This document shows, in pieces, positions 7,766 to 61,045 of a stretch of 64,000 nt of DNA. Numbering within the stretch: position 1 is the first letter of the stretch; the number at the start of each line of letters is the position of its first letter. Both the position numbers and the translations under genes were made by a program. The notes beneath the pieces were generated by a model. It was given only the letters and a program-made list of their open reading frames with translations. It was not told the origin of the DNA and made no database searches. Origin of the DNA: a virus (lineage: Duplodnaviria > Caudoviricetes); the IMG/VR virus record IMGVR_UViG_3300047476_002143, positions 455 to 64,454 of that record; one strand, 5' to 3'.

Positions 7766-8434
7766 TTATTGTGAGTTTAATAATCTTTCAACATGGTGGT
7801 CATTTGGCATTTCAGAAAGTTTTTCTCTATGTCTTAACATAGGTACTACTTCTCTGTAAACATCGTATGGCCTGAGCTCTGGGTGACCATCCATACCAAC
7901 ATCCATTCTCTGACCTTTACCGAACCTCATGTGAGTTGGTAAGTGACAGTGACCGTGTAGGTGCATTACACCCTTATTAAGACCATCCCAAGAACTTATG
8001 GGGTAGTGCATCAAACGGAACTTAAACTGTCCCATTTCGAGTGTATTATAGTGAGAAACGGACTTGAATAACCCTTGACTACCTTGTCTGTTATTCTCTA
8101 TGTGGTGGTCATGGTTTCCCAAAACCAAATGTATGTTCTTACACACCAACCTATCCCAAAACTCACGTATTTGCTCGAAACCACCGAAAGACCAGTCACC
8201 AAGATGTATCAATATGTCATCTTGACCAACAACTTGATTTATGTTGTTGACCATTCTTGTATTCATTTTTTCTACGGTTGCAAAATCACGAGTTTGTGAT
8301 ATGGGGACTTCACCTGACTCTGTTCTCCATGCGGTTGTTCCACGACATATATTCTTATGTGAAAAGTGTGTGTCAGAAGTTATCCACACATTTACTTCGG
8401 GTACGTTTTTGGTATCTACTGGTATCTTTATCAT
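7766..8434 (-). CDS. Calcineurin-like metallophosphoesterase
   Basis: SDTHFSH, HLGD, GNHD, HYP, HLHGHCH motifs; TATCTTTG promoter immediately upstream. Confidence 0.88.
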   Translation of the reverse strand: MIKIPVDTKNVPEVNVWITSDTHFSHKNICRGTTAWRTESGEVPISQTRDFATVEKMNTRMVNNINQVVGQDDILIHLGDWSFGGFEQIREFWDRLVCKNIHLVLGNHDHHIENNRQGSQGLFKSVSHYNTLEMGQFKFRLMHYPISSWDGLNKGVMHLHGHCHLPTHMRFGKGQRMDVGMDGHPELRPYDVYREVVPMLRHREKLSEMPNDHHVERLLNSQ

Positions 8435-16578: not shown

Positions 16579-16641
16579 AACAATAAATATTAAGATGATT
16601 TTTGGAAGTTTAAATTAATTTTTTATCTTTGTGAAACAATT

Positions 16642-16715
16642 GGACCCGTAGCTCAGACGGTTAGAGCAGGAAACTCATAATTTCAAGGTCGTTGGTTCGA
16701 ATCCGACCGGGTCCA
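16642..16715 (+). tRNA. tRNA with CAT anticodon (Met or lysidine-Ile2)
   Basis: GGACCCG/CGGGTCC acceptor stem, CT-CAT-AA loop, TTCGAAT T loop; TATCTTTG promoter at about 16624. Confidence 0.85.
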
Positions 16716-16731
16716 CATAAAAAATATAAAT

Positions 16732-17106
16732 ATGGAATACGGTTACGGACCAGAAAAGCACATCATCGATGAAATAAAAAAATCGAGGGTTTTAATAGTA
16801 GTATCTTCATTAATATTGATTACGGTATTTGTTCTATTTTCAATTTGGGGTACATCAGAAATTATGGACTTGGACAAAAAGGAATTTCTTGTGGTTAACA
16901 AAAAGTTAAACAATATCACAACCGAAGTTGAATCTATTAGTTTGAAACAAGACCAAATGCAACAATCAATAAGTAATATTGAAAGCAAGATGGATAGTTC
17001 AATAATCATCTCACAATCAACAAACTCCAAGGTTAGTTCTTTGAATGGAAAAGTTGCAAGAGTTTCCGAAAATATGGACACAATTATTGTTTACATAAAA
17101 AAATAG
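16732..17106 (+). CDS. Membrane-anchored coiled-coil protein
   Basis: Single transmembrane helix followed by a heptad-like region. Confidence 0.65.
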   Translation: MEYGYGPEKHIIDEIKKSRVLIVVSSLILITVFVLFSIWGTSEIMDLDKKEFLVVNKKLNNITTEVESISLKQDQMQQSISNIESKMDSSIIISQSTNSKVSSLNGKVARVSENMDTIIVYIKK

Positions 17107-17110
17107 AATC

Positions 17111-17383
17111 ATGCCTTATATTGATATGGACATAGATGTTGAAGACTTTTTATATGCTTGTAGTCGAAGAGACATCAAAGAGTTAATTCAATCTCTTGTT
17201 GAAAACGACCATTTACCTAAAGAAGTGTTGAATAAAAATGGTGATGTCAAAGAAGATTTAGTTAGGAGAGGAAGAGGTGAAGACGATTTCTCAGATAAAC
17301 TTGAACAATTGAAAACAAAATACTATTCTTTAACACAGGAAGAAGAAGAGTTCTTTGATAGGGTTTTTAAGAAATATTTGTAA
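17111..17383 (+). CDS. Hypothetical protein
   Basis: ORF in operon. Confidence 0.65.
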   Translation: MPYIDMDIDVEDFLYACSRRDIKELIQSLVENDHLPKEVLNKNGDVKEDLVRRGRGEDDFSDKLEQLKTKYYSLTQEEEEFFDRVFKKYL

Positions 17384-17403
17384 GTAAGAGTATATTTATA
17401 AAC

Positions 17404-17475
17404 ATGATGAACATCGACTTAAATAAGTTTAATCCGGCACCTGCGAATGGTGATGGCAATCTTATGTCAAGTTGA
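17404..17475 (+). CDS. Putative leader peptide 1 (MMNIDLNKFNPAPANGDGNLMSS)
   Basis: 23-codon ORF after TATTTATA; stop codon overlaps the antiterminator strand; codons match the downstream tRNAs. Confidence 0.75.
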   Translation: MMNIDLNKFNPAPANGDGNLMSS

Positions 17476-17496
17476 GTTCGGTAAAATATTATGTTT

Positions 17497-17531
17497 AAAA
17501 AACCCTGAACTCTTAAGTTTGGGGTTTTTTT
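17497..17531 (+). terminator. Attenuator terminator before the tRNA-Pro/Asn/Asp/Gly/Ala cluster
   Basis: AAAAAACCCTGAAC-TCTTAA-GTTTGGGGTTTTTTT; alternative pairing of GAGTTCGG (17474-81) with CTGAACTC (17505-12). Confidence 0.8.
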
Positions 17532-17536
17532 ATGTT

Positions 17537-17611
17537 CGGGATGTAGTACAGTCCGGTTAGTATGCATGGTTTGGGACCATGAGGTCGCTGGTTCGAATCC
17601 AGCCATCCCGA
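17537..17611 (+). tRNA. tRNA-Pro(TGG)
   Basis: CGGGATG/CATCCCG acceptor, CATGG-TT-TGG-GA-CCATG. Confidence 0.93.
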
Positions 17612-17617
17612 CGGAAT

Positions 17618-17689
17618 GTCTCCTTAGCTCAGTGGTAGAGCATCTCGCTGTTAACGAGAGGGTCCAAGGTTCGAAACCTTGAGGGGACG
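17618..17689 (+). tRNA. tRNA-Asn(GTT)
   Basis: Cloverleaf, TCTCG-CT-GTT-AA-CGAGA, G73. Confidence 0.92.
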
Positions 17690-17695
17690 CAGAAC

Positions 17696-17767
17696 GGTCT
17701 CATAGTTAATCGGCTATAATATCCCCCTGTCACGGGGATGTGGCGGGTTCGATTCCCGCTGAGACCG
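17696..17767 (+). tRNA. tRNA-Asp(GTC)
   Basis: GGTCTCA/TGAGACC acceptor, TCCCC-CT-GTC-AC-GGGGA. Confidence 0.92.
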
Positions 17768-17771
17768 CAAC

Positions 17772-17981
17772 GAGTAAGAGATACTCAGAGTCTTTAATCC
17801 AAGACTTGAACAATGGATAGATGTTTAGTAGTATCAGTCGTAAATGACTACTCATGGGAATAACGTCGATAAACCTATCTTCGCCCAGTAAAGGTTGACT
17901 GTTTTTATGAGGGATGCCTCACAGGTTTTGGAACAGAACAAAAAACCGAAATAACTACTCACCCATAATCTCAAGGTGGGG
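17772..17981 (+). ncRNA. Unassigned structured RNA of about 210 nt inside tRNA cluster 1
   Basis: Several hairpins (GAGTA/TACTC, AGTCTT/AAGACT, AGTC/GACT, TGAGG/CCTCA), GC content above background, no long ORF. Confidence 0.5.
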
Positions 17982-17987
17982 AAACTT

Positions 17988-18059
17988 GCAGGTATAGCAC
18001 AAAGGTTAGTGCTCTAGTCTTCCAAACTAGAGATGCCGATTCGAGTTCGGCTACCTGCT
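17988..18059 (+). tRNA. tRNA-Gly(TCC)
   Basis: GCAGGTA/TACCTGC acceptor, CTAGT-CT-TCC-AA-ACTAG, U73. Confidence 0.92.
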
Positions 18060-18115
18060 CAGTGGGCCTTTGTGGAGGGCCGAAAGGAAAATAGGTTTTT
18101 TTCATCCACATTTAT

Positions 18116-18188
18116 GGGGTAGAAGCTCTAGTGGATGAGCACAAGATTTGCATTCTTGAGGTTGTGGATTCGAGTTCCACCTATTCCA
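18116..18188 (+). tRNA. tRNA-Ala(TGC)
   Basis: G3:U70 in the acceptor, CAAGA-TT-TGC-AT-TCTTG. Confidence 0.9.
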
Positions 18189-18227
18189 CAAGTATTTATT
18201 ACTAAATAAACTTGAAAAAAAAACAAA

Positions 18228-19151
18228 ATGAAAGTAAACTACAAATTGTTATCAGTTGTGTTCGGAGGGTTTCTAGTAGTATCCTTAGCTTACATCGTAT
18301 TCTTCACAAATAAATCTAACACAGTAATCAAAGAAAAGGAGATTCAATATGTTGAGGTTGTAAATTCTAAGACTGAACTCGAAATGGAGCATCAGTCCAC
18401 ATTGAAAAAATTAGGTGATGCCGAACTCAGAATCGATACTTTATCTGGACTGAATCTCAGTTCTAGTAAAGAAATCATGTCTCTCAAAAAGAAAGTTAAG
18501 TCTATACTTTATAAGTCGAATTTGACTAAAGAAGAGTTAACAACTGCAAAAGGATTGATTGTAGAACTTAATACTAAAATAGAGGACAGGATAAAAGAAA
18601 ATGAAATACTGAAGTCTAGTAATGTTAAATTGACTGAAGATAACACCAATCTCCAAATGGAGAAAAATCAATTGGTAAAAGTATTAGACTCCACAAAAGT
18701 AGAAAAAGAAAATGCAGACAATGTTATTGATTTGGGAAGTACTTTGTCAATTTCTAATCTAACGGTTGAAGGATTCAATATCAAAGGTAAAAAAACGGAT
18801 GTTGTTGAAAAAGTTCACAAGATGAAGTTTTCATTTGTTATAAACGAAAATAGAATTTCTTCAAATGGTGTAAAAACTGTTTATTTCATTCTTCTCAATC
18901 CTATTGGTAAGGAGGTTAAATTAGAAGGTAAATCAGGAATACTTAGTACCAAGAAAGATGGTGAAAAAATATATACATCAAGCTCATCTTTAGACTACAC
19001 AACAGGTTTAATCAAAAAGGCTAACTTCGAGGTAGAACTTTCTAAATTGTCTATGGATGGTATCTATAAAGTTCAAATATATGAGAATGGTTTCATGGTC
19101 GGTGAAAGCAAGGTTTTCTTTAAAAAGAAAAAATTACTCGGATTATTTTAA
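18228..19151 (+). CDS. Membrane-anchored coiled-coil protein with a C-terminal beta domain (Bacteroidota-like)
   Basis: N-terminal transmembrane helix, long coiled coil, Ig-like end (G.YKVQIYENG..VG). Confidence 0.7.
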   Translation: MKVNYKLLSVVFGGFLVVSLAYIVFFTNKSNTVIKEKEIQYVEVVNSKTELEMEHQSTLKKLGDAELRIDTLSGLNLSSSKEIMSLKKKVKSILYKSNLTKEELTTAKGLIVELNTKIEDRIKENEILKSSNVKLTEDNTNLQMEKNQLVKVLDSTKVEKENADNVIDLGSTLSISNLTVEGFNIKGKKTDVVEKVHKMKFSFVINENRISSNGVKTVYFILLNPIGKEVKLEGKSGILSTKKDGEKIYTSSSSLDYTTGLIKKANFEVELSKLSMDGIYKVQIYENGFMVGESKVFFKKKKLLGLF

Positions 19152-19159
19152 AATCATAT

Positions 19160-19187
19160 AAAAACCCTCCTCGTGAGGGTTTTTTTT
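19160..19187 (+). terminator. Intrinsic terminator
   Basis: AAAACCCTC-CTCGT-GAGGGTTTTTTT. Confidence 0.8.
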
Positions 19188-19200
19188 ATTATATTTGCGT

Positions 19201-21738: not shown

Positions 21739-21834
21739 ATGAACAACACATCAAAACATATCGTCATTAGTAAACAACAGTTTAGTTGTTGGTATTGTCA
21801 TATGCTTACCTGTAGTTCATCATTAGTTAGTTAA
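21739..21834 (+). CDS. Putative leader peptide 2 (MNNTSKHIVISKQQFSCWYCHMLTCSSSLVS)
   Basis: 31-codon ORF after a TATATTTG promoter (21712-19); CTGTAGTTC (21810-18) pairs with the terminator 5' arm. Confidence 0.75.
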   Translation: MNNTSKHIVISKQQFSCWYCHMLTCSSSLVS

Positions 21835-21857: not shown

Positions 21858-21891
21858 ACCCCGAACTACAGAAATGTATTCGGGGTTTTTT
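21858..21891 (+). terminator. Attenuator terminator before tRNA cluster 2
   Basis: ACCCCGAACTACA-GAAA-TGTATTCGGGGT plus T tract. Confidence 0.85.
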
Positions 21892-21898
21892 ATTTTTG

Positions 21899-21907
21899 GT
21901 TCTTTGA
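21899..21907 (+). promoter_or_regulatory. boxA-like antitermination motif GTTCTTTGA
   Basis: The same 9-mer lies upstream of the tRNA-Leu unit (20307) and of the tmRNA (42544-52, minus strand). Confidence 0.55.
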
Positions 21908-21931
21908 CATATTGGTTGTAAATTTGTAAAA

Positions 21932-22223: not shown

Positions 22224-22311
22224 AGTCAGGTGATGAAATGGTATTAAGGTGGAGGTATGACGCAGTAATGTAGTCCCAAAACAGTTACAGGTTCGAATCC
22301 TGTCCTGACTT
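22224..22311 (+). ncRNA. tRNA-like element without a canonical anticodon arm
   Basis: Perfect AGTCAGG/CCTGACT acceptor and ACAGG-TTCGAAT-CCTGT T arm, irregular middle. Confidence 0.65.
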
Positions 22312-27697: not shown

Positions 27698-27711
27698 TAT
27701 CTTTGTATTAT

Positions 27712-34832: not shown

Positions 34833-36032
34833 TTAGTTTCCTTTTGTTGGGAACCTCGTCCATTTGGAAGACCAAAGTGGTGTTGCAAGTTCAGGTATTA
34901 CTGAAGTAATTTCTGAATTGCCTTTTGATAGTGATAATGTTTTTAATTGGTCGTTTGTTAATATAAGTGTTGCTTTACTGATAAAATTAAGTGAAGGATT
35001 AAAAGTTCCAACTGAATTATTTTCAAATACTGAAACCCCATCTTTAACAAACTGTGCAGTTTCATTACTTTCCAAACTCAATCCACCTTTCATCCAACCC
35101 CAAATCACACTGTTCTTCATTGTGAATTGTGTTGCTCTTCTGAATCTCAAACCTAAGTTATGATTAGGAAGTGATGTGGCATCGTTTGGACCAACCAAAG
35201 TCATATTAAGAAGTTTTGGGTGAGTGAAAGGTTGTGCGAGTGAGCCAACGCCATCGTTATCGCACTCTACCCCATTACCAGCATCACCATTATCTACAAA
35301 TTGTGGGTCTCTTTTTGCAACACCATTTGTTATTGTTCCTGTGTAACCGAAGTCAAAATCAAAATCATCATCTGCAGTTGCAAATGCGTAAAGATATTTT
35401 GGAGATACTGTTCCACCGAAGAACTCAAAAGCATCATCGTTAGCGTAAATTGTTTGAACGTATTCTATTACTGTTCCACTACCAACACCTCCAAGAGTTA
35501 ATGCATTGATTTCTGAATTTGGAAGTGCTGCAATACCTGCGTATTCAATTCTGACATACTTCAGAATACCACTATTGTCAGCATCATTAGTTCCGCCGAA
35601 TGGTCTACCAATACCACCTTCGATTGTTGGTTCAGAACTTCTGTTTGTTTTTGCTCTTCCCAAAATTACAATTCCACCCCAATCGCCAGGAGACCTCTCG
35701 CCAGCGTTTTTACCTGAGGTGAAAATAATTGGTTTTTCAGGAGTTCCTTCTGCAATTATTTGAGCTCCTCTTTCAATGCAAAGTGCTCCTTTTTCTGCAA
35801 CATCGGAAATAATTGTTGTTCCTGGTTGAATGATTAGTTTTGCACCATCTGTAACATATACATACCCTTTGAGAGTCCATACTTTGTCAGATGTCAAAGT
35901 TGTTGTTTGATTAATGTTTCCTGTTAAAGTAGTTTGTGAAGGAACATTAATTGGTGGAGTTCCTCCCCCTAATTCTTTTTCGCAACTTAACAAAAGTGTT
36001 GAGAATAAAACTGCCGTTAATAATTTTTTCAT
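34833..36032 (-). CDS. Surface lipoprotein, beta-helix-like partner of the TonB receptor
   Basis: LLLSC lipobox, PIIFTS, GDWGG...LG, YVRIEYAG, DDAFEFFGG, DDDFDFD. Confidence 0.8.
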   Translation of the reverse strand: MKKLLTAVLFSTLLLSCEKELGGGTPPINVPSQTTLTGNINQTTTLTSDKVWTLKGYVYVTDGAKLIIQPGTTIISDVAEKGALCIERGAQIIAEGTPEKPIIFTSGKNAGERSPGDWGGIVILGRAKTNRSSEPTIEGGIGRPFGGTNDADNSGILKYVRIEYAGIAALPNSEINALTLGGVGSGTVIEYVQTIYANDDAFEFFGGTVSPKYLYAFATADDDFDFDFGYTGTITNGVAKRDPQFVDNGDAGNGVECDNDGVGSLAQPFTHPKLLNMTLVGPNDATSLPNHNLGLRFRRATQFTMKNSVIWGWMKGGLSLESNETAQFVKDGVSVFENNSVGTFNPSLNFISKATLILTNDQLKTLSLSKGNSEITSVIPELATPLWSSKWTRFPTKGN

Positions 36033-38281
36033 AAGTTTAGATTTAATGAAACTGAGAGAGTTTGTTCGTTATTGATTTTTATTAACTCTCTGTTGTTTAT
36101 TTTTTGATAGTATACTGTTGGTTGAGCGATTAGGTCACCAATAGCGAGTTTAAGTTCACCATTTTTTATTTTTCTTAGGTAAACGATGTCCATTACGTCT
36201 CTTGAGTTTTCAAATATATCTGCATATCCTTGAAATCCTACCGCAGAAATTCTATCACCCACTCTGTTGTATGAAATATTGAATGTGTTTTTTCCTTTGT
36301 GGAAATTCAATCCACCATTAACCACATAGTTTGATTGTCCTTGTAATTGTCTTTCCACTCCATTAACTTTAACGTGAGAGTTTGAAACTGTTGAATTTGT
36401 ATAAACATCCAACCAGGAACAAATTTGTTTTCTAAGTTCAAATTCAATACCGTAAACACTTGCTCTGTCAGGATTTGTGAAAGTCAAAAGTAAGTTTGAT
36501 GGTACTGAACCATCTGCAACTATTTGTTCTATTGGTCTTACGAAGTTCTTACCGAATAAAGCAACTGATATATTTTCCCCTGATTTCGGATAGTACTCCC
36601 ACTTCAGGTCTAAATTATAGATGTCTGTCTTTTCTAAATTTGTATTACCTAAAAGTTGAGCATTTCTTACAAAATCGTAATAAGCGAAGTTTGCAACTTC
36701 TCTGAACTCAGGTCTTGAAAGTGTTTTGGAAAATGAAGTTCTGAATTTTGTTTTGTCTAAATTATAGGAAAGATTAATGGATGGTAAGAAGTCCAAATAT
36801 TCTCTATTTACCTGAACCTTTTGTCCACTGAAATCTGATGTCTCAACATTGAATAAATTATATTCAGTTCTAATCCCACCGTTTATCTTAAGTTTTCCAA
36901 GTGTCTTATCATATTGAACATAACCGGAGCCCAAATCAAAATCTGCACCATATCTGTCAGTATTGTTTGTAATTTCATTTAATATATCATCGGCATCGTA
37001 TCTGAAGATTCTTGCTTTGAAATTTCTTAATTTTTTCAGATATGATACTCCAATCTTGAAATCATTTATCTCCTTGTTTAATGAACCATTGAATGAATTC
37101 TCGTCCATTACAGACCAAAACCTGTATGTGTCTCTCCAAGCAGTTGTATAGTCTGTATTCGTTCCTAATGACTTTGTAATTGGGTTTACTCTATAGTCAG
37201 GTTGGTCTCTTAACATCAAGTTCCAACCAACATTAAAATCTAAAGTTTTTATCTTACCATCAAATTGTGAATTTACAATTGTCTTAACAATATTATTAGA
37301 GGAATTACTTCTGACATCTTGTACGTTGTCATAGTTCTCACCATTTCTTGTCAGGTAAGAATTTTCAATTTGGTGATTGAATAAAGTTTTCCAAGAATAT
37401 TTGTTTTGGCCCAAATAAGTTAGGTTCATTAACCCATTAACTAAAAATACTTTAGTAAATGATGTATCTTTATACTTGTAAGCTAATTCAGTAGATGATT
37501 GATAATCTTGTCTGTCAATAAAATTCAGAGAAAATGAATTTCTTGCATTTGCCGACATTAACAAATTCCATTTATCTTTTTTGTAACCGAAAGACAAATT
37601 ACAATTCAAGTTTGGAAATGAATTTGTTGTTTTAGAGTTAGGAGAGCCTATTAGTTTGGTGAAAGCCCTTCTATCACCATTAGATGCAACTCTAAAGTCG
37701 TATGTGGACGGAAAGTTGGTGGGGAACTGAATATATTCCACCGAGTTGAATTTTTGGAATGTAGAAACGGTCCCGTACCCCGAACCCATTCCTATTGTAA
37801 AAAAATTTTTTGATACATCTTTAGTGTTTACCTGAATTATGCCACCCCCAAAATCACCAGGAAGTGATGCAATTGCAGATTTGGAAACAATAATATTATC
37901 TATCAGATTGGATGGGATAATATCGAAAGAAAATGCTCTTCTATCAGGTTCTGTTGAAGGTAGAAGAGTTTTATTTAGTATTGCTGAATTATACCTGTCT
38001 GATAATCCTCTAACTAAAACAAACTTATCGTTTTGAATTGTTACACCATTAACTCTTTTGAGGGCATCTCCGACAGTTCTATCAGGAGTTTTTTTGATAA
38101 ATTCTACTGAAAGTCCATCGGAAACGACTGAACTATTCCTTACAATATTGATTACTGCAATGTTGGTTTCTTTCTTCGTTGTACTTTTAACTTTAACTTC
38201 ATCTAACTTTTGATTGAACAATGTGTCTTGGGAAAAACTGAATATTGGTAATACCAATAATAAAAATAAATTTTTAATCAT
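36029..38281 (-). CDS. TonB-dependent outer-membrane receptor
   Basis: Signal peptide, plug domain (VRGLSDRYN, LPSTEPDRRAFSFDIIPSNLID), RPEFRE, GN..L...I.NLD..WEYYP. Confidence 0.9.
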   Translation of the reverse strand: MIKNLFLLLVLPIFSFSQDTLFNQKLDEVKVKSTTKKETNIAVINIVRNSSVVSDGLSVEFIKKTPDRTVGDALKRVNGVTIQNDKFVLVRGLSDRYNSAILNKTLLPSTEPDRRAFSFDIIPSNLIDNIIVSKSAIASLPGDFGGGIIQVNTKDVSKNFFTIGMGSGYGTVSTFQKFNSVEYIQFPTNFPSTYDFRVASNGDRRAFTKLIGSPNSKTTNSFPNLNCNLSFGYKKDKWNLLMSANARNSFSLNFIDRQDYQSSTELAYKYKDTSFTKVFLVNGLMNLTYLGQNKYSWKTLFNHQIENSYLTRNGENYDNVQDVRSNSSNNIVKTIVNSQFDGKIKTLDFNVGWNLMLRDQPDYRVNPITKSLGTNTDYTTAWRDTYRFWSVMDENSFNGSLNKEINDFKIGVSYLKKLRNFKARIFRYDADDILNEITNNTDRYGADFDLGSGYVQYDKTLGKLKINGGIRTEYNLFNVETSDFSGQKVQVNREYLDFLPSINLSYNLDKTKFRTSFSKTLSRPEFREVANFAYYDFVRNAQLLGNTNLEKTDIYNLDLKWEYYPKSGENISVALFGKNFVRPIEQIVADGSVPSNLLLTFTNPDRASVYGIEFELRKQICSWLDVYTNSTVSNSHVKVNGVERQLQGQSNYVVNGGLNFHKGKNTFNISYNRVGDRISAVGFQGYADIFENSRDVMDIVYLRKIKNGELKLAIGDLIAQPTVYYQKINNRELIKINNEQTLSVSLNLNL

Positions 38282-53345: not shown

Positions 53346-55100
53346 TTGACAAAAGAACAATTAATAATAGAAGTTACGAAGTGCATGAGAAATACTCCAT
53401 ATGCACTTCGTACTTATTTACAGACATATGATAATACGGTATCAAAATACGTACCGTTAGATTTATTTCCAGACCAAGTCAGTCTTATCGAGGACTACGA
53501 AAAGTATAACGAAAATATTGCCTTAAAGTATAGACAAGCAGGTGTTTCTACAGTAACTGCGGCATGGGCGTCAAAAAAATTAGTTTTCGCGAAAAAACAG
53601 AAACCAGAAAAAATTCTAATCATTGCCAACAAATTGGATACATCAGTTGAAATGGCAAACAAGATTAGAAGTTTCACTGAACAATGGCCGGCTTGGGTAG
53701 GTGTCGGATTTTCACAAGAAAAGAATTCGCAAAGACATTTCAAATTAACTAACGATTGTGAAGTCAAAGCCGTTGCAACATCAAAAGACGCTTTGAGGGG
53801 TTATACACCTACAATTCTTATTTTCGATGAGGCAGCGTTCATTGATGCGGACGGTGACTTCTGGTCTGCATGTATGGCATCCCTTTCTACAGGAGGTAAA
53901 GTTATTGTGGTATCTACCCCCAATGGTTATGACCCAATCTATTATGAAATTTATGACCAAGCTTTAAGAAATATGAACGATTTCAAAATATCAGAGATGT
54001 TTTGGTATCGTGACCCAAGATATACAAAGGATTTGTATATGGTAAAAACAAATGATTTGGTTCATTTTTTATTGAATAGAGAGGAGTATGCTGCTGATGT
54101 TGTCGTTGATTTATCAGTAGATAACGCATACGAAAGAGACCACTCAATAGTCACAGAGTACATCAAACAAGGATATAAACCTTGTTCTGCTTGGTTTGAG
54201 GGAATGGTTAAAAAACTCAAGTATGACAGAAGAAAAGTAGCTCAGGAGTTGGAATGTAACTTTCTAGGTTCAGGAGATAACGTATTTGAATCTGAAATTC
54301 TACAAAACGTATCTCAAAATACTTTACAGGAACCCGGAGCAAAACTTATGGGTGGAGCTCTATGGATATGGAAAGAACCTGTCCTTGGTCACAAATACGT
54401 TATGGGAGTAGATGTCTCGAGAGGAGACTCAGAGGATTTTTCCTGTATTGAAATAATAGACTTTAATGAGAATGAACAAGTGTTGGAATATGTTGCAAAG
54501 GTACCTCCTGACGTTGTTGCTGAAATTGCCTATAAGTGGGGAACAATGTATGATGCCTTCTGTGTTGTGGATTTGACGGGGGGAATGGGTGTTGCAACCG
54601 CAAGAAAACTACAGGAGCTAAATTACAAAAATTTATATATTGACACTGTTGAAAACAACAATAAGTGGAAATGGGACCCGAAGATTAATGAAAAAATTCC
54701 TGGTATAAATTTCAATAGTAAACGTGTTCAAATTATTGCATCATTTGAAGAAGCAGTTAGACATGGATTTAAAGTAAGGTCTCAAAGGTTGTATAACGAA
54801 ATGAATACATTTGTGTATATCAATGGAAGACCTGACCACCAAAAAGGACATCATGATGATTGTATTATGGGAATATCCATGGCAACATATGTTGCGGAAA
54901 AATCTTTCCAACAACTGACAAAAAATTTAAATCACACAAAGGCAATGATTGATTCATGGGCGGTTTCTGTAAATGAAAATAAAAATTCATCACAATTTTT
55001 CAATCCTATGATACCACAGACTGCAGAAAAAAAACAATACTTCCCTAATCAAGGACCGAGTAGAAGTGATTATGAAAAATATAAATGGTTGTTCTATTAG
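53346..55100 (+). CDS. Terminase large subunit (T4 gp17-like)
   Basis: KYRQAGVST, IFDEAAF, VSTPNG, QELECNF, GVDVSRG, HDD; TTG start. Confidence 0.93.
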   Translation: MTKEQLIIEVTKCMRNTPYALRTYLQTYDNTVSKYVPLDLFPDQVSLIEDYEKYNENIALKYRQAGVSTVTAAWASKKLVFAKKQKPEKILIIANKLDTSVEMANKIRSFTEQWPAWVGVGFSQEKNSQRHFKLTNDCEVKAVATSKDALRGYTPTILIFDEAAFIDADGDFWSACMASLSTGGKVIVVSTPNGYDPIYYEIYDQALRNMNDFKISEMFWYRDPRYTKDLYMVKTNDLVHFLLNREEYAADVVVDLSVDNAYERDHSIVTEYIKQGYKPCSAWFEGMVKKLKYDRRKVAQELECNFLGSGDNVFESEILQNVSQNTLQEPGAKLMGGALWIWKEPVLGHKYVMGVDVSRGDSEDFSCIEIIDFNENEQVLEYVAKVPPDVVAEIAYKWGTMYDAFCVVDLTGGMGVATARKLQELNYKNLYIDTVENNNKWKWDPKINEKIPGINFNSKRVQIIASFEEAVRHGFKVRSQRLYNEMNTFVYINGRPDHQKGHHDDCIMGISMATYVAEKSFQQLTKNLNHTKAMIDSWAVSVNENKNSSQFFNPMIPQTAEKKQYFPNQGPSRSDYEKYKWLFY

Positions 55101-55143
55101 ACATAACTATTTATATTATCAAGGAAAAAAGTAAAATTAAAAA

Positions 55144-56976
55144 ATGGCGGATAACAATTTAACAGTTTGGCAACGATTAGGACAAGCATTCGGACCTAAC
55201 TCACTTTTGGGTCAGGATTATCCTACGTTCAAATTTGATAAAAAAGAGTTATTAAGAACTCAAGATAGGGCAACATACGAAAGAGAAAAACTACAGGCAC
55301 AACAAACATATTACATTGCAAATCAATGGGCTAAGATTGAAAATAACCTTTACTCCCAAGCCATATATTACGAACCGTCAAGATTATCTGCAACATACGA
55401 TTATGAATCGATGGAGTATACTCCAGAAATATCGGCAGCATTAGACATATATGCGGAAGAATCCACAACAGTTAATGAAGATGGGTTTATGCTCCAAATT
55501 TATTCGGAATCAAAAAGAATCAAAGCGGTATTAGCCGATTTATTCAATAACACATTGGACATCAATACAAACTTACCAATGTGGACAAGAAACACATGTA
55601 AGTATGGAGATAACTTTGTTTATTTGAAACTTGACCCTGAAAAAGGTATTGTCGGTTGTCAACAATTACCAAACATAGAAATTGAAAGACATGAAATCGG
55701 AATGATGGAAAAAACTCCTGTGGTTCCGGGCAAAACAGAAGCAAAAAGGCAGTTGACCTTCGAGTGGAAAACAAAACAAATGACATTCCAAACATGGGAA
55801 ATCTCTCATTTCAGACTTCTCGGGGATGACAGAAAACTACCGTATGGTACTTCAATGTTAGAAAAAGCAAGAAGAACGTGGAAACAACTATTGCTATCTG
55901 AAGATGCTATGATGATTTATAGAACGTCAAGAGCACCTGAAAGAAGAGTATTTAAAGTTTTTGTTGGGAATATGAATGATGATGACGTTGAGGCATATGT
56001 AAACAGGGTTGCGGATAAATTTAAGAGACAACAAGTTATAGACTCTAAGACAGGAAATGTTGATATGAGATTCAACCAAATGGCGGTTGACCAAGATTAT
56101 TTTATTCCTGTGAGGGACCCATCAACTCCATCACCAATAGAAACCTTGCCAGGTGCAACAAACCTTTCTGAAATAGCCGACATCGAGTATATTCAGAAAA
56201 AATTATTGACAGCACTTAGAGTTCCAAAAGCGTTTTTAGGATTCGAGGAAGTGGTGGGTGATGGTAAAAATCTCTCATTGCAAGACATACGTTTTGCGAG
56301 AACTATTAATAGAATTCAAAAAAGTATGATTCAAGAACTTAACAAAGTTGCAATCATACATTTATTTTTATTAGGTTTTGAAGATGAAATAGATAACTTC
56401 ACACTAGGACTGACAAATCCATCCACACAAGCAGATTTACTCAAAATAGATGTTTGGAAGGAGAAAGTCTTACTATATAAAGACTTGGTAATGGACCCTG
56501 GAAACGGTATTGCCGCCACCTCTTCTACCTGGGCTAAAAAACATATATTCAATTTCTCGGATGATGAAATTAGAACTGACTTACTACAACAAAGATTGGA
56601 AAGAGCCATAGGTGAAGAATTGAAACAAACACCAACAGTAATTAGCAAAACAGGTTTATTCGACAATATAGATAAGCTTTATGGTCAGGCAAGTGGTGGT
56701 ACAGTTACTTCATCTAACGAAACACCTATGAGTGGTGGTTTAGAACCTCTAAGCCCTGATTTTGGTGCTGAAGGGGGTGAAGAGCCTACGCCTCCGCCGC
56801 CACCTCCACCTGGAGGTGAAGGAGAAGCATCTGTAACTCCAGAATCAAAAATTGAAAGATTAAATATTTTGGTTGAAAATAATGTATTAGAAGGTCAAAG
56901 TTTCATAAACTTGAGTCAAGGGAGAGATTCTTTGGGAGAAATTGACAAAGAACTTGATAAGTTATTAAATCTCTAA
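55144..56976 (+). CDS. Portal protein (T4 gp20-like)
   Basis: PYGTSMLE.ARR, EDAMMIYR.SRAPERRVF, DYFIP, IETLPG. Confidence 0.93.
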   Translation: MADNNLTVWQRLGQAFGPNSLLGQDYPTFKFDKKELLRTQDRATYEREKLQAQQTYYIANQWAKIENNLYSQAIYYEPSRLSATYDYESMEYTPEISAALDIYAEESTTVNEDGFMLQIYSESKRIKAVLADLFNNTLDINTNLPMWTRNTCKYGDNFVYLKLDPEKGIVGCQQLPNIEIERHEIGMMEKTPVVPGKTEAKRQLTFEWKTKQMTFQTWEISHFRLLGDDRKLPYGTSMLEKARRTWKQLLLSEDAMMIYRTSRAPERRVFKVFVGNMNDDDVEAYVNRVADKFKRQQVIDSKTGNVDMRFNQMAVDQDYFIPVRDPSTPSPIETLPGATNLSEIADIEYIQKKLLTALRVPKAFLGFEEVVGDGKNLSLQDIRFARTINRIQKSMIQELNKVAIIHLFLLGFEDEIDNFTLGLTNPSTQADLLKIDVWKEKVLLYKDLVMDPGNGIAATSSTWAKKHIFNFSDDEIRTDLLQQRLERAIGEELKQTPTVISKTGLFDNIDKLYGQASGGTVTSSNETPMSGGLEPLSPDFGAEGGEEPTPPPPPPPGGEGEASVTPESKIERLNILVENNVLEGQSFINLSQGRDSLGEIDKELDKLLNL

Positions 56977-57006
56977 TATTTATATTCAAATTAAATAAAA
57001 TTTTAT

Positions 57007-57711
57007 ATGACATTCGGTTTAATAAAGTCCATAATAGAAGAGAATCTCTTAGAGTCTTACAAAGATGAAAAATCATTCAAAAGAGCAATGAATGAGTTCA
57101 AACAAAATATTTTGAACAATAAAGATATTTCCAAAGTTTATGCTTTGTATGATGAACTTTCTAAACCACAAGGTCTGTCTGTAGACGATGCAAAAGACTA
57201 CTTGTCTGAGGGAATTTCGGTAATTCAAAAGTTACTCGAAAAAATTAAGCTTCCAAAAGTTATTGGTGAGTCTAAGGTTATTAACAAATATAAACTTATT
57301 GATGACTTAGTTTACCTAAATAATGTTTCTAACTTATTCGAAAGAGTGGAAATAAAAAAACAAATTATTAAAAATTTACAAGGAAAATCAAAAATTTCTG
57401 AAGGTCACATCAATCTACCGATAAGTAGCATGGTTAAAATTGCAAATCAAACTATTAATAGTTATATCGATGGGTTAGATGAAGAATCAAAGAAAGAATT
57501 CTTTGAAATTATTAAAGAAGATAATTCTACCTTAGAAAGTAAATTTGTATCACTAAAGGAAATGGCGCTTGCAAAATTAGTACCTTTAGCAGAACTACAA
57601 AATGACAATGATACTAAAAATAAAATCGAAGAGACAATTAAAAAAATAGAAGAAGATACATTTAGTCAACTTAACTTTTTGAAGTTGAAAAAACTACATC
57701 AGTCTCTCTAA
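57007..57711 (+). CDS. Hypothetical protein in the head module
   Basis: ORF after TATTTATA. Confidence 0.7.
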   Translation: MTFGLIKSIIEENLLESYKDEKSFKRAMNEFKQNILNNKDISKVYALYDELSKPQGLSVDDAKDYLSEGISVIQKLLEKIKLPKVIGESKVINKYKLIDDLVYLNNVSNLFERVEIKKQIIKNLQGKSKISEGHINLPISSMVKIANQTINSYIDGLDEESKKEFFEIIKEDNSTLESKFVSLKEMALAKLVPLAELQNDNDTKNKIEETIKKIEEDTFSQLNFLKLKKLHQSL

Positions 57712-57893
57712 GAATTTTTAATTTTTTGTGTATAAACCGCTTTTAAAATCTGTTTTCTTTTGATTACAGATTTTTTTGTATACTCCTTTTTGTCATGCAA
57801 TTTTTGTTGTTGCTTGGTTTTTATAACCTTAGACTTGAGTACTTTGAGGGCTCTTTCGATACTATCTTTTCCTTTTATTTCAACAATTAACAT
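57708..57893 (-). CDS. rpsU: Ribosomal protein bS21
   Basis: MLIVEIK..DSIERALK.LK.K..KT.....L...KEY.K.SV..R....KA.Y, Bacteroidota-like. Confidence 0.9.
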   Translation of the reverse strand: MLIVEIKGKDSIERALKVLKSKVIKTKQQQKLHDKKEYTKKSVIKRKQILKAVYTQKIKNS

Positions 57894-57987
57894 ATATTAC
57901 AAATATCGCGAATTATACAAAACTTTGACTAACAGTTTATAATGTGTTATGTTTATAAAAAAAATAAACTAAGTAATATGAAACTGA

Positions 57988-58416
57988 ATGAAAAAAGGGA
58001 AAAGTGTGAAAATGAACTTGTCATCATCTTTTAAATCTATGTATGGTACGGTAGATTCTAAAAATTTGAAATCATTATATATAAACATACAATCTTGGGT
58101 TTTACCAAAAACAGAATTAGATAATTGGAACAGAGTTGTTTGTAACCTAAGTAGAGAACTAAAACACACAGTATTTGATTCCATAGATACTTCAGTTTTT
58201 GTAAAGAACACAATCGTCGATTTGGACCTGAGAACTAGTGGAATTTGTTCAGGAAAAAAATCATTTTTTAATTTAGAAATCAATCTTTTTTTAGAGAAAC
58301 AAGTAGATTTCAAATCATCAGAATTAAAGGATTCAATCAAAAAAATTGTCAGAAACATCCAAAAAACAAACATAATTAACAACGACTATTTCGAATTTTC
58401 TATAACTAAAAAGTAA
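57988..58416 (+). CDS. Hypothetical protein
   Basis: ORF between rpsU and the protease. Confidence 0.7.
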   Translation: MKKGKSVKMNLSSSFKSMYGTVDSKNLKSLYINIQSWVLPKTELDNWNRVVCNLSRELKHTVFDSIDTSVFVKNTIVDLDLRTSGICSGKKSFFNLEINLFLEKQVDFKSSELKDSIKKIVRNIQKTNIINNDYFEFSITKK

Positions 58417-58464
58417 AAATCATAAACTATTCTTTAATTGAAATATTTATTTAAAAAAAAGTTA

Positions 58465-59187
58465 ATGGAAAAAAAATTAAGAATCCTCGAAGCCCACGAA
58501 GTAGGACATGGAATATTGATAGAAATGGATGCTGGATTTGTTTCTCCTGTTTCAGGTGAAAATCTAAAATTTATAAAAGAAGGTAAACAATTTGATTATA
58601 GAAACCCTTTCGAATTTTATGCGGTTCTACAAAAATACGACACACCAAATAGAAATGGTAGAACCTATTCTGAAAAGATTTTAAAGAGAGAATCAGAAAA
58701 ATATAAGACATTAATCGAAAAGGGATTGGCTACTTCAGAATTAAATCACCCTGAGTCATCTCTGATTGATTTAGACAGGGTATCTCACGCAATAACTGAT
58801 ATATGGTGGGATAAAAATATCTTGATGGGAAAACTAAAATTATTAACTTCCCCAGGTTTTCATGAAAGAGGTATTGTGACGACAAAGGGAGATATTGCCG
58901 CAAATCTATTGAGACAAGGGGTTACTTTGGGTATATCATCAAGGGGTGTTGGTTCTCTGAAAAAGGTTGGAGACAGAAACGAAGTACAAGATGATTTTGA
59001 ATTGATTTGTTTCGACTTAGTTTCTTCACCTTCTACACCTGGGGCATATCTTTTTGACGATGTTAGTGAAAGAGAAAAATATGACGAGAACTTGGATGAA
59101 GAAAGAAAGATTAGAATGGGTACGGAACCAAAACTTAACCAGTCTATTGATTTAATGAAAAAATTAACCGATTATTTGTCAAAATAA
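58465..59187 (+). CDS. Prohead core protease (T4 gp21-like)
   Basis: NRNGRTY, ELNHP, GISSRGVGS, FDLVSSPS.PGA. Confidence 0.93.
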   Translation: MEKKLRILEAHEVGHGILIEMDAGFVSPVSGENLKFIKEGKQFDYRNPFEFYAVLQKYDTPNRNGRTYSEKILKRESEKYKTLIEKGLATSELNHPESSLIDLDRVSHAITDIWWDKNILMGKLKLLTSPGFHERGIVTTKGDIAANLLRQGVTLGISSRGVGSLKKVGDRNEVQDDFELICFDLVSSPSTPGAYLFDDVSEREKYDENLDEERKIRMGTEPKLNQSIDLMKKLTDYLSK

Positions 59188-59192
59188 TCAGT

Positions 59193-59405
59193 ATGGATGA
59201 GAAATATTTTGTTGCGAAAGTAACATATGATTTACCTGATGATAATACAGGTAAAGTAAAAAAAATTAGAGAAGAAAAACTTGTTAAAGGTTATTCTGTA
59301 ACAGATGTTGAAGCAAAAGTTACAAAAAAATATGAAAGTTTTTCTTATGATTGGAGAATAACTTCAGTTTCAGAAAGTAAAATTGATGAAGTTATCGAAG
59401 ATTAA
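59193..59405 (+). CDS. Small conserved Bacteroidota-type protein (DUF4494-like)
   Basis: YF.AKV.Y.....GK.KK..E..LV...S.T..EA. Confidence 0.6.
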   Translation: MDEKYFVAKVTYDLPDDNTGKVKKIREEKLVKGYSVTDVEAKVTKKYESFSYDWRITSVSESKIDEVIED

Positions 59406-59532
59406 AAATTTAAAAGTGGTCAATTTCGACCACTTTTTTTATGCCCTGTAATTAATAATTTATTGAAAATAACCATTTAATACAAACTTTTTTAAACAAT
59501 GGAACTATTTATTGTTTAAAATAGGAAAAACT

Positions 59533-61008
59533 ATGCAAGAAAATAAGAATCTTGTTGAAGAGGCACTCATTCAAATGAAAAATGTTGAAGAAGCTATTGC
59601 CGAAAATGCAAAAGGAATACTTGCTTCTACTATGAAGGAAGAAATCAGCCAATTAGTAAAAGAATCTCTTTCTGAACAAGAAGAGTTGGATTTAGACGCA
59701 GATGTTGACATGGCATCGGCAGATGACGATGATGATACAGATGTATCTATTGACGCTGATATGACTTCTGACGACGACTCAGATGAAATGGAGGTAGATA
59801 TGGATATGGATGTTGATTCTGATAATCCAATCGATTTATCTGATGCATCCGACGAGTTTATTTTGAAAGTATTTAAGTCTATGGGTGAAGATGACGGCAT
59901 CATCGTAAAAAAAGACGGTGACGACATTCATTTAACTGACAACAATACTGACTCAGAATATCTTGTTAAAAACTTAGGTGAATCTGAAGAAGAAAATTAT
60001 GAAAATATGGAATACAACGAACAAGAAGACGAAGATGTTCAAGACGTAATAGACGCTATTTTCTCAGACAGTTCTGACGTTTCTGATGATTCAGGTTCGG
60101 ACGAAGTTATGGATGACGAAGATGAAGTTGTTTATGAAATTGAATTTACTGAAGACGATGATTCTGACGATGAAATCGAAGAGTCTGAAGAAATGGACGA
60201 ATCTGATGATATGGATGAGTCTGAAGAAATGGACGAATCTGATGATATGGATGAGTCTGAAGAAATGGACGAAGAAAATTGGCAGATGGACGAATCTTAT
60301 AGTCATAAGAAGTCAAAAAAAGTAGAAACAAAAGAAAGTAAAATGTCCGTTAAACCTAAAGGTGTTGGAATGGGTAAAGCTAAATTCTCTTATAAGAAAT
60401 CATCAGGTGGTTTCAGTGAGGACAAAAAAGAAGGTCCTAAAACTATGGGAACTGGCAAAGCTAAATTCGAATACAAGAAAGGTGAAAACATGGAAGGGGA
60501 TAACAAAATTGTTAAGAAATCTGAAACAAAAGAAGCTGCTAGAACTTTAGGATTCGGTCCTAAAAAAGGAGCTTTGAGAAAAGGTATCACAAACAATAGA
60601 AATATGATGGAGTCCCTAGAAACAGAAGTTAGTTCTTTGAGAGAAAAGAATGAAGAGTACAGAAAGGCATTGAATGTATTTAGAGAAAAACTCAACGAAG
60701 TTGCAATTTTTAACTCTAATCTAGCATATGCTACAAGACTTTTCACTGAACACTCAACAACTAAAAAAGAAAAAATAAACATTCTTAGAAGATTCGACGA
60801 TGTTGATTCACTTAAAGAGTCTAAAGGACTTTATAAAGTTATCAAAGAAGAATTGACTAAGACTGAAACAAAATCAATAAATGAATCTGTTGGTAACAAA
60901 TTGACAAAATCTGTACAATCAGGTTCATCAACTACTTTAATCGAAAGTAAAACATATGAAAATCCTCAATTCATGAGAATTAAGGACTTGATTACTAAGA
61001 TTAGGTAA
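59533..61008 (+). CDS. Prohead scaffold/core protein (gp22-like by position)
   Basis: Very acidic, C-terminal coiled coil, directly upstream of the capsid gene. Confidence 0.75.
   Translation: MQENKNLVEEALIQMKNVEEAIAENAKGILASTMKEEISQLVKESLSEQEELDLDADVDMASADDDDDTDVSIDADMTSDDDSDEMEVDMDMDVDSDNPIDLSDASDEFILKVFKSMGEDDGIIVKKDGDDIHLTDNNTDSEYLVKNLGESEEENYENMEYNEQEDEDVQDVIDAIFSDSSDVSDDSGSDEVMDDEDEVVYEIEFTEDDDSDDEIEESEEMDESDDMDESEEMDESDDMDESEEMDEENWQMDESYSHKKSKKVETKESKMSVKPKGVGMGKAKFSYKKSSGGFSEDKKEGPKTMGTGKAKFEYKKGENMEGDNKIVKKSETKEAARTLGFGPKKGALRKGITNNRNMMESLETEVSSLREKNEEYRKALNVFREKLNEVAIFNSNLAYATRLFTEHSTTKKEKINILRRFDDVDSLKESKGLYKVIKEELTKTETKSINESVGNKLTKSVQSGSSTTLIESKTYENPQFMRIKDLITKIR
60181..60273 (+). 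repeat. 36-bp coding tandem repeat (ESEEMDESDDMD, about 2.5 copies)
   Basis: GAGTCTGAAGAAATGGACGAATCTGATGATATGGAT repeated. Confidence 0.85.
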
Positions 61009-61045
61009 AAAAATAAATAAACAAGAAAAAAATAAAATTCACAAA

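Follow-up and report, generated by a model that had tools for sequence, protein, structure and literature searches.

A putative leader-peptide attenuator gating a five-gene tRNA array in a T4-like phage fragment

We describe a short open reading frame (ORF), here called leader 1, and the five transfer RNA (tRNA) genes that follow it in a window of 64,000 nucleotides (nt) of phage DNA. The window makes up nearly all of the 64,454-base IMG/VR record IMGVR_UViG_3300047476_002143, for which CheckV estimates a completeness of 21%. Upstream of the leader lies a two-gene unit, orf124 and orf90; orf90 has 90 codons and ends at position 17383, and no terminator separates it from the leader. The leader ORF is followed, 21 nt past its end, by a strong intrinsic terminator with a G+C-rich core (17503-11 paired with 17516-24) and a free energy of -16.2 kcal/mol (ViennaRNA). 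The tRNA-Pro gene starts 5 nt past the U-run, and gaps of 5 nt also separate the Pro, Asn, and Asp genes (Table 1). Between tRNA-Asp and tRNA-Gly there is a 219-nt spacer (17769-17987) without unusual structure (fold z -0.15), which is retained in one relative (L019) and in DNA contigs from three sequencing runs. A 151-nt contig from an RNA library spans 17805-17955 within this spacer, at depth 2 and with 3 differences. A gene of 307 codons begins 38 nt past tRNA-Ala.

Table 1. Coordinates, in the window, of leader 1, its predicted RNA elements, and the tRNA array behind it.
Feature	Position	Strand	Remarks
AT-rich heptamer	17393-17399	+	5 nt upstream of leader start codon; columns invariant in four leader-1 sequences
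Region 1 and inner 5' strands of long leader hairpin	17400-17441	+	Contains both ATG codons; partner 17449-17496
Leader ORF	17404-17475	+	23 codons and TGA; two adjacent ATG codons at start
Putative sensing core, codons 10-19	17431-17460	+	Solely Asn (3), Pro (2), Ala (2), Gly (2), and Asp (1)
Conserved part of core, codons 12-19	17437-17460	+	Kept in relatives
3' strands of leader hairpin, including region 2 (17469-17496)	17449-17496	+	Minimum free energy fold and alignment
Predicted antiterminator strand	17474-17481	+	Overlaps stop codon (17473-17475); 8 base pairs with 17505-17512, one of them G-U
Intrinsic terminator	17497-17531	+	Stem 17497-17511/17516-17530, loop 17512-15, U-run 17525-17531 (seven U)
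Bacteroidota -7 box match	17514-17521	+	In terminator loop and 3' arm; 15 nt before tRNA-Pro
tRNA-Pro(UGG)	17537-17612	+	ARAGORN and Rfam
tRNA-Asn(GUU)	17618-17690	+	ARAGORN and Rfam
tRNA-Asp(GUC)	17696-17768	+	ARAGORN and Rfam
tRNA-Gly(UCC)	17988-18060	+	ARAGORN and Rfam
tRNA-Ala(UGC)	18116-18189	+	ARAGORN and Rfam

A first-pass annotation of the sequence had drawn attention to a peptide core of the type NPAPANGDGN, restricted to the residues N, P, A, G, and D, and had matched these residues to the five downstream tRNAs; the peptide sequence and the tRNA calls agree on this point. Among 127,942 ten-residue windows in the six frames of the 64 kb, a single one is built purely of these five residues, and it is the leader-1 core, located 77-106 nt upstream of the array that carries exactly these five tRNAs. 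The leader ORF also ranks first of 399 ATG-initiated ORFs of 15-40 codons, standing alone at a level of at least 59% in-set residues (mean 15.7%), and its longest in-set run is 10 residues, compared to 5 in the next of these small ORFs. Altogether, 13 of the 22 residues that follow the initiator come from the five array amino acids. Each of the five is represented by two synonymous codons in the leader, as had been remarked, and some of them are indeed atypical: in the window's 40 long ORFs, CCG accounts for 10% of the codons for Pro, GCG for 11% of those for Ala, and GGC for 5% of those for Gly. The G+C content is 53% in the core and 33.8% in the window. The observation on leader 1 is thus confirmed as real and far from chance.

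Relatives of the element were sought with a composite motif derived from leader 1 and from a second leader of the window (leader 2), consisting of a 10-nt block with a fixed stop codon, the 5' arm of the terminator, and a G-run with a U-run. The window contains two matches, while 0.00 are expected from shuffled sequences. The scan identified 15 related elements, 3 of them on viral and 12 on metagenome contigs, and in all 17 instances (the two of the window included) a short ORF ends at the stop codon of the motif and is followed by tRNA genes on the same strand. The instances fall into three families. Leaders of the first type (window, L018, L019, and L023) have 23 codons, and the first tRNA starts 7-8 nt after the motif match. 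The leader-2 type (window 21739-21834, L013-L017, L025, and L026) has 31 codons in all seven distinct variants. Leaders of the third type (L020-L022, L024, and L027) have 25 codons and one peptide common to the five loci; the ORF has two variable sites, each of which is the third position of an Ala codon.

Within the first family, the leader ORF of L019 is identical to that of the window, and those of L018 and L023 differ from it at many sites. The differences are unevenly distributed along the ORF. None of codons 3-11 is invariant and none changes only synonymously; all nine carry amino acid changes. In codons 12-19, two are invariant, four change synonymously only, and two show replacements within the five-residue set (Asp to Gly and Asn to Asp). 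When synonymous-only and amino acid-changing codons are compared between the core and the N-terminal part, Fisher's test gives p ~0.011. This pattern of codon changes delimits the conserved sensing core as the eight codons at 17437-17460, to which the window adds two further in-set codons. The leader frame is moreover the sole stop-free frame in all four sequences, the other frames carrying 2-4 stops.

Pro, Asn, and Asp tRNA genes follow the leader in all relatives of this type. The array goes on with Gly(GCC), Gly(UCC), and Ala in L018 and with Gly(UCC) in L019, and the contig of L023 ends after Asp. In L019 and L023, the genes for tRNA-Pro and tRNA-Asp have no sequence relationship to their counterparts in the window and L018, with anticodon, order, and identities retained. 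Both forms of tRNA-Pro are present in the DNA run X8, where a contig combines the same leader with the alternative tRNA-Pro; contigs of three DNA runs yielded no further leader variant. The 3' end of orf90 is syntenic in L018, L019, and L023. On the reverse strand of L019 (10726-10811), a tRNA of 86 nt, which combines a long variable arm of the Ser/Leu/Tyr type with the Asn anticodon GUU, occupies the place that an ordinary 73-nt tRNA-Asn holds in the other arrays.

Other searches for relatives returned little. A blastn search of 16600-19200 against 50,697 phage records gave tRNA-sized matches only (3-4% of the query), and a search for relatives of the 90-amino acid gene upstream of the leader returned none. 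With the 307-amino acid protein one relative was identified (L002/G001), in which that gene does not adjoin tRNAs; G001 is syntenic around the tRNA region and lacks leader 1 and its array, yet contains a counterpart of leader 2. A degenerate pattern of the ten-residue core had no match in viral contigs, and neither had a pattern of the Pro-Asn junction any match. Among the tRNAs of the window, similar leaders upstream were seen only in the form of leader 1 and leader 2.

We asked how far the composition of the leaders follows that of their arrays. An array was defined to include every tRNA gene on the strand of the leader until another leader, a change of strand, or the end of the contig was reached, and the joint probability (P) of in-set count and coverage was estimated by Monte-Carlo sampling of random peptides with the amino acid frequencies of the 40 long ORFs. 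P was 0.0012 for leader 1 of the window, with a set that here includes Leu, and 4e-4 for leader 2. Low values were also obtained for L013/L015 (~4e-5, with a reduced array of Cys, Trp, Asn, and Arg), L026 (9e-5, likewise with a reduced array), L016 (0.0026), and L017 (0.0032); L025, where the array is cut after three tRNAs, gave 0.27. The lowest value belongs to L024 of the third family (5e-6), where all 12 tRNA types of the array are represented in a 25-residue peptide. Every residue type of the third-family peptide except Ala and Ser has a called tRNA. In L027, a degenerate tRNA-like gene (8360-8429) that bears an Ala anticodon lies 7 nt past the third-family terminator; it scores 27.0 bits with Rfam against a gathering score of 29 and is called as tRNA-Ala(UGC) by ARAGORN at relaxed settings, and it would account for the three Ala codons of this leader. 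A cross table of 8 leaders and 8 arrays is block-diagonal, with the cognate array scoring best in 5 of 8 rows; leader-1 peptides score 2.7 and 0.9-1.2 on leader-1 arrays and at most 0.9 on the others. Since the instances share descent, they amount to few independent events, namely the three families and some changes within the leader-2 type.

The RNA of the leader is predicted to form a long hairpin between regions 1 and 2 (the 1:2 hairpin), with 17409-17420 paired to 17469-17479 and 17400-17408 to 17488-17496. The minimum free energy (MFE) of the leader fold is -42 to -43.3 kcal/mol, at a z of -4.2 relative to shuffled sequences. In the alignment of the four leader-1 sequences, the MFE structure of the window is paired in 94.3% of cells, compared to 37-51% with slid partners, and two compensatory pairs are found, both in the helix 17423-17430 with 17458-17465. 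The terminator helix is 98.2% paired in the relatives, with an invariant stem and U-run and a variable loop. The same topology of 1:2 hairpin and terminator was obtained for each of the nine distinct leaders folded, covering all three families, and in the MFE folds of all nine the strand able to pair with the 5' arm of the terminator is sequestered by the start of the ORF.

An 8-nt strand that overlaps the TGA stop and pairs with the 5' side of the terminator, proposed in the first-pass annotation, is present as stated. This antiterminator is the MFE structure (-8.4 kcal/mol) for RNA that starts anywhere from 17447 to 17474, as it would downstream of a ribosome held in the core, and ends at 17513, short of the terminator's 3' arm. 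It is lost for RNA with a start at or beyond 17480, the situation expected for a ribosome on the stop codon, and the terminator then has no competitor. It is 93.8% paired in the four sequences, and 6 of its 8 pairs never vary. The third family has an antiterminator of 11 base pairs and -20 kcal/mol that overlaps the stop codon at a place homologous to that of leader 1, its strand extending from -1 to +11 relative to the stop; in the leader-2 type, the corresponding strand lies 13-23 nt upstream of the stop. The probability of an equally good antiterminator in shuffled sequences is below 0.001 for the third family and 0.007-0.09 for leader 2.

Taking these data together, we regard it as likely that leader 1 is a ribosome-mediated transcription attenuator of the leader-peptide type, gating the Pro-Asn-Asp-Gly-Ala array of a T4-like phage. 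The array-matched short ORF, the terminator ahead of the tRNA genes, the 1:2 hairpin, and the stop codon lying over the antiterminator strand are all features of such attenuators; the genes to be regulated are not those of amino acid biosynthesis or transport or of a tRNA synthetase, but five tRNA genes. Translation of the leader, stalling, the switch, and its direction are what we infer from the comparative and structural evidence, which supports the earlier suggestion that a ribosome at the stop codon would correspond to the OFF state and one stalled in the core to the ON state. Transcription would begin just upstream of the leader or read in from the 90-codon gene. In untranslated RNA, region 1 would pair with region 2, the terminator would form, and transcription would stop 5 nt before tRNA-Pro. 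A ribosome that reaches the stop codon would mask region 2, again permitting the terminator and leaving the array off. A ribosome pausing within codons 10-19 until Asn-, Pro-, Ala-, Gly-, or Asp-tRNA arrives would instead split regions 1 and 2 and free the antiterminator strand, which could pair with the terminator's 5' arm ahead of the synthesis of the 3' arm, leading to read-through and expression of the array. The circuit would then act as a supply sensor with negative feedback, in which shortage of any of the five charged tRNAs turns on their genes. The usual ribosome footprint extends ~15 nt downstream of the P site. In every leader-1 variant the last four codons are outside the five-residue set, and these codons presumably sit where a stalled ribosome would start to cover the antiterminator.

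The AT-rich heptamer ahead of the leader possibly marks where expression starts. Identical heptamers are found upstream of orf239 (5 nt from its start) and of an HNH gene (15 nt), and the motif is a candidate for a promoter or a translation-start signal.

Several observations weigh against the attenuator as formulated above. The antiterminator of leader 1 has only 8 base pairs, with -8.4 kcal/mol set against -16.2 for the terminator; its shuffle p is 0.065 in the window, 0.30 in L018, and 0.27 in L023; no compensatory change is seen in it, and L018 has a U-U mismatch there. Folding with and without a ribosome, which had been proposed as a check, showed the loss of the antiterminator upon covering 17480 onward. 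When only the footprint is masked, however, the 1:2 hairpin forms again around the ribosome at 4 of the 5 stall positions, and the antiterminator prevails solely under the assumption that RNA on the two sides of the ribosome cannot pair. The switch thus works only on the premise that this pairing is blocked, either by a ribosome in the loop or by a second one queued at the start. Both start codons are inside the 1:2 hairpin, and translation of the leader would therefore need co-transcriptional loading of ribosomes. In addition, the terminator hairpin was not listed by a simple consensus terminator scan, which we think is due to the A-tract and the U-run lengthening the stem.

The match between leader and array has exceptions as well. 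The enrichment over the whole peptide is weak in L018 (P 0.054) and in L023 (P 0.052, with a cut array), where the match is confined to the eight-codon core. The tRNA-Ala of L019 is a remnant with a 33-nt internal deletion, as seen when 2340-2615 of L019 (minus strand) is aligned with 17980-18235 of the window, and both Ala codons of its leader are kept; this loss looks recent, because the leader is identical to that of the window. By the standard wobble rules, tRNA-Gly(UCC) does not read GGT and GGC, the Gly codons of the window's leader; in L018 the two Gly tRNAs, GCC and UCC, occur together.

A promoter of the array's own is a further concern, and an independent promoter between the terminator and tRNA-Pro had been named in advance as an outcome that would speak against attenuation. 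The U-run and tRNA-Pro are separated by only 5-7 nt in all four leader-1 sequences, which appears to leave no room for a promoter in between. On the other side, a full match to the -7 box consensus of Bacteroidota, the suggested host group, lies inside the terminator of the window and of L019 and could belong to an independent promoter. The first base of this box differs in L018 and L023, no -33 element was seen ahead of it, and the 118 matches of the box in the window compare to 92.7 expected, a slight enrichment near chance level. Directly past the leader-2 terminator (21891-21926), there are two -7 box matches, the second of them preceded by a possible -33 element, and the leader-2 array may have a promoter of its own; control by read-through may therefore be less direct for leader 2. 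In G001 the same box element precedes a gene of 77 codons. Boxes are also located 7-11 nt upstream of tRNA-Met (box at 16624-16631), tRNA-Ser (box at 27698-27705), and the lone tRNA-Pro of L027, none of which has a leader ORF. Judging from sequence, promoters seem to drive the single tRNA genes and leaders to gate the arrays. Of the 23 sequencing runs matched, six were RNA runs and contained 0.04-0.07 of the sampled words; one RNA run, stored as contigs, has no cover over 17111-17550 and is uninformative on leader transcription.

Three other explanations of the locus have to be considered. The leader could be translated and report tRNA supply with an output other than a hairpin switch, such as processing or stability of the pre-tRNA, Rho-type termination after uncoupling, or access of nucleases to the start of the transcript. 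This explanation makes use of the strong link between composition and array, and it is at ease with an antiterminator that is statistically weak and devoid of compensatory change while the 1:2 hairpin is the best-conserved structure. It leaves aside the position of the stop codon, fixed relative to the 5' arm of the terminator in 17 of 17 instances, the highly significant antiterminator at the homologous place in the third family, and the strong intrinsic terminator placed exactly between the ORF and the first tRNA, and we hold it to be unlikely. The hairpins might alternatively be a mere terminator, or a processing or stability structure, that ends the orf124-orf90 unit, with the small ORF an accident of a G+C-rich stem within A+T-rich DNA. 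The lack of a terminator between orf90 and the leader, the synteny of the orf90 3' end in three relatives, the two compensatory pairs as a sign of a selected RNA structure, and the natural tendency of G+C-rich stems (53% in the core) to yield Gly, Ala, and Pro codons would fit such an origin. An accidental ORF is hard to reconcile with a frame and a 23-codon length that are kept while the other frames contain stops, with four core codons that change at the third position only and two that change within the set, with a match in composition found once in 399 ORFs or 127,942 windows, and with two other families that match arrays not driven by G+C content (Phe, Ile, Lys, Tyr, Asn, and others). The codon-position pattern and the other two families led us to set aside a chance ORF in a G+C-rich stem, and the explanation as a whole is in our view quite improbable.

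The remaining explanation takes the ORF and terminator to be a free-standing micro-gene and the array to be transcribed from its own promoter overlapping the terminator (17514-17521), the likeness of peptide and array having another cause or none. It draws on the full -7 box match 15 nt before tRNA-Pro, on the leaderless single tRNA genes with boxes close upstream, and on the promoter-like element past the leader-2 terminator. The box is barely enriched in the window, has lost its first base in two relatives, and comes without a -33 element; a micro-protein is unlikely to vary at nine of nine N-terminal codons and yet stay in-set in its core; and the peptide belongs to no PHROGs family. We consider a micro-gene with a separately transcribed array very unlikely.

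Attenuation of the array by leader 1 may be one case of a wider arrangement. Extending the reading to all three families, we lean towards the view that large phages possess a modular 'roster' system, in which a test ORF ahead of each array lists the amino acids of its tRNAs and transcription of the array depends on ribosomes waiting at those codons; this would be the first leader-peptide attenuation of tRNA genes. Such a system would be a homeostatic sensor, one per array, of the charged-tRNA pool of the host, which could serve after decay of host tRNAs or their cleavage by anticodon nucleases, and leaders and arrays would co-evolve when tRNAs are gained, lost, or swapped. The regulation and purpose of phage tRNAs are debated, with compensation for codon usage, a substitute for host tRNAs that have been degraded, and evasion of defences that cleave tRNAs all under discussion. 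If leader 1 works as proposed, the phage makes tRNAs on demand, and the logic of trp and his attenuation reaches from amino acid supply to tRNA supply. A compact element of ~130 nt would then sense five tRNA species at once, and 12-13 in the sister family. The co-variation of leader and array in the relatives would constitute a natural experiment on the rewriting of a sensor upon gain or loss of tRNA genes.

The window contains genes for a T4-type large terminase, a gp20-type portal, and a gp23-type major capsid protein, and is therefore taken to be a fragment of a large T4-like phage. It also codes for a TonB-dependent receptor and a ClpB/ClpC-like ATPase. At 53346-62851 and 36029-38281, the T4-type terminase, portal, and major capsid genes are found beside the TonB-dependent receptor-like gene, a neighborhood that suggests a T4-like phage with outer-membrane uptake genes; the motif of the promoter boxes and the receptor genes suggest a host among the Bacteroidota. 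The DNA runs containing this stretch are labeled as freshwater, wetland, or aquatic metagenomes. PHROGs assigned a family neither to the leader peptide nor to its three neighbor genes. The window has 21 tRNA genes and one transfer-messenger RNA gene. A further tRNA-like element at 22224-22311 scores 30.3 bits with Rfam, against a gathering score of 29, and is not called by ARAGORN.

Attenuators that respond to several amino acids are well known from enterobacteria, where the thr leader carries Thr and Ile codons and the ilvGMEDA leader Ile, Leu, and Val codons; trpL, hisL, and pheL are further examples of such leaders. Leader 1 shares with the thr and ilv type the short ORF rich in the sensed codons, the presence of several amino acids in one leader, the predicted topology of 1:2, 2:3, and 3:4 hairpins, the terminator ahead of the regulated genes, and a terminator that is more stable than the antiterminator. 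It differs in that it precedes tRNA genes rather than biosynthetic enzymes and is carried by a phage with a probable Bacteroidota host, in that five amino acids are involved (12-13 in the third family), and in that its region 1 is the region of the start codons and not that of the stall codons. No Rfam leader family reached its gathering score in the window. The best sub-threshold matches in 17350-18260 were Thr_leader (RF00506), with 24.1 bits (gathering 55, E 0.046), and the trpB motif, with 25.9 bits (gathering 59, E 0.35).

In Escherichia coli, the pheST attenuator uses a leader peptide to control phenylalanyl-tRNA synthetase. As proposed for leader 1, a component of the translation machinery is there controlled by the supply of a charged tRNA; the target of pheST is a synthetase, a single amino acid is sensed, and the system is cellular, whereas leader 1 is viral. 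T-box riboswitches bind uncharged tRNA directly and need no ORF. They resemble leader 1 in coupling the charging of tRNA to the choice between terminator and antiterminator upstream of translation-related genes; no T-box match was found at the gathering score in the window, nor at E of at most 1 in 17350-18260.

The nearest published case appears to be the trn array of Anabaena PCC 7120, an accessory set of stress-induced tRNAs that is reported to stay silent until translation is impaired (PMC8421152, PMC10272220). A silent array that is turned on under impaired translation is also what we propose for leader 1. Control of the Anabaena array is described there as promoter-level, through tandem direct repeats over the -10 box and start site and the repressor TrcR (PMC8421152, PMC10272220), and the main text of PMC8421152 contains no occurrence of 'leader peptide', 'attenuat', or 'terminator'. 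The accessible part of the literature, including that on phage-encoded tRNA, tRNA operons, and tRNA depletion or stalling, yielded no published control of tRNA genes by a leader peptide or by attenuation. What is new in leader 1 is the nature of the genes that it would regulate, which are tRNA genes, within an attenuator layout that is otherwise known.

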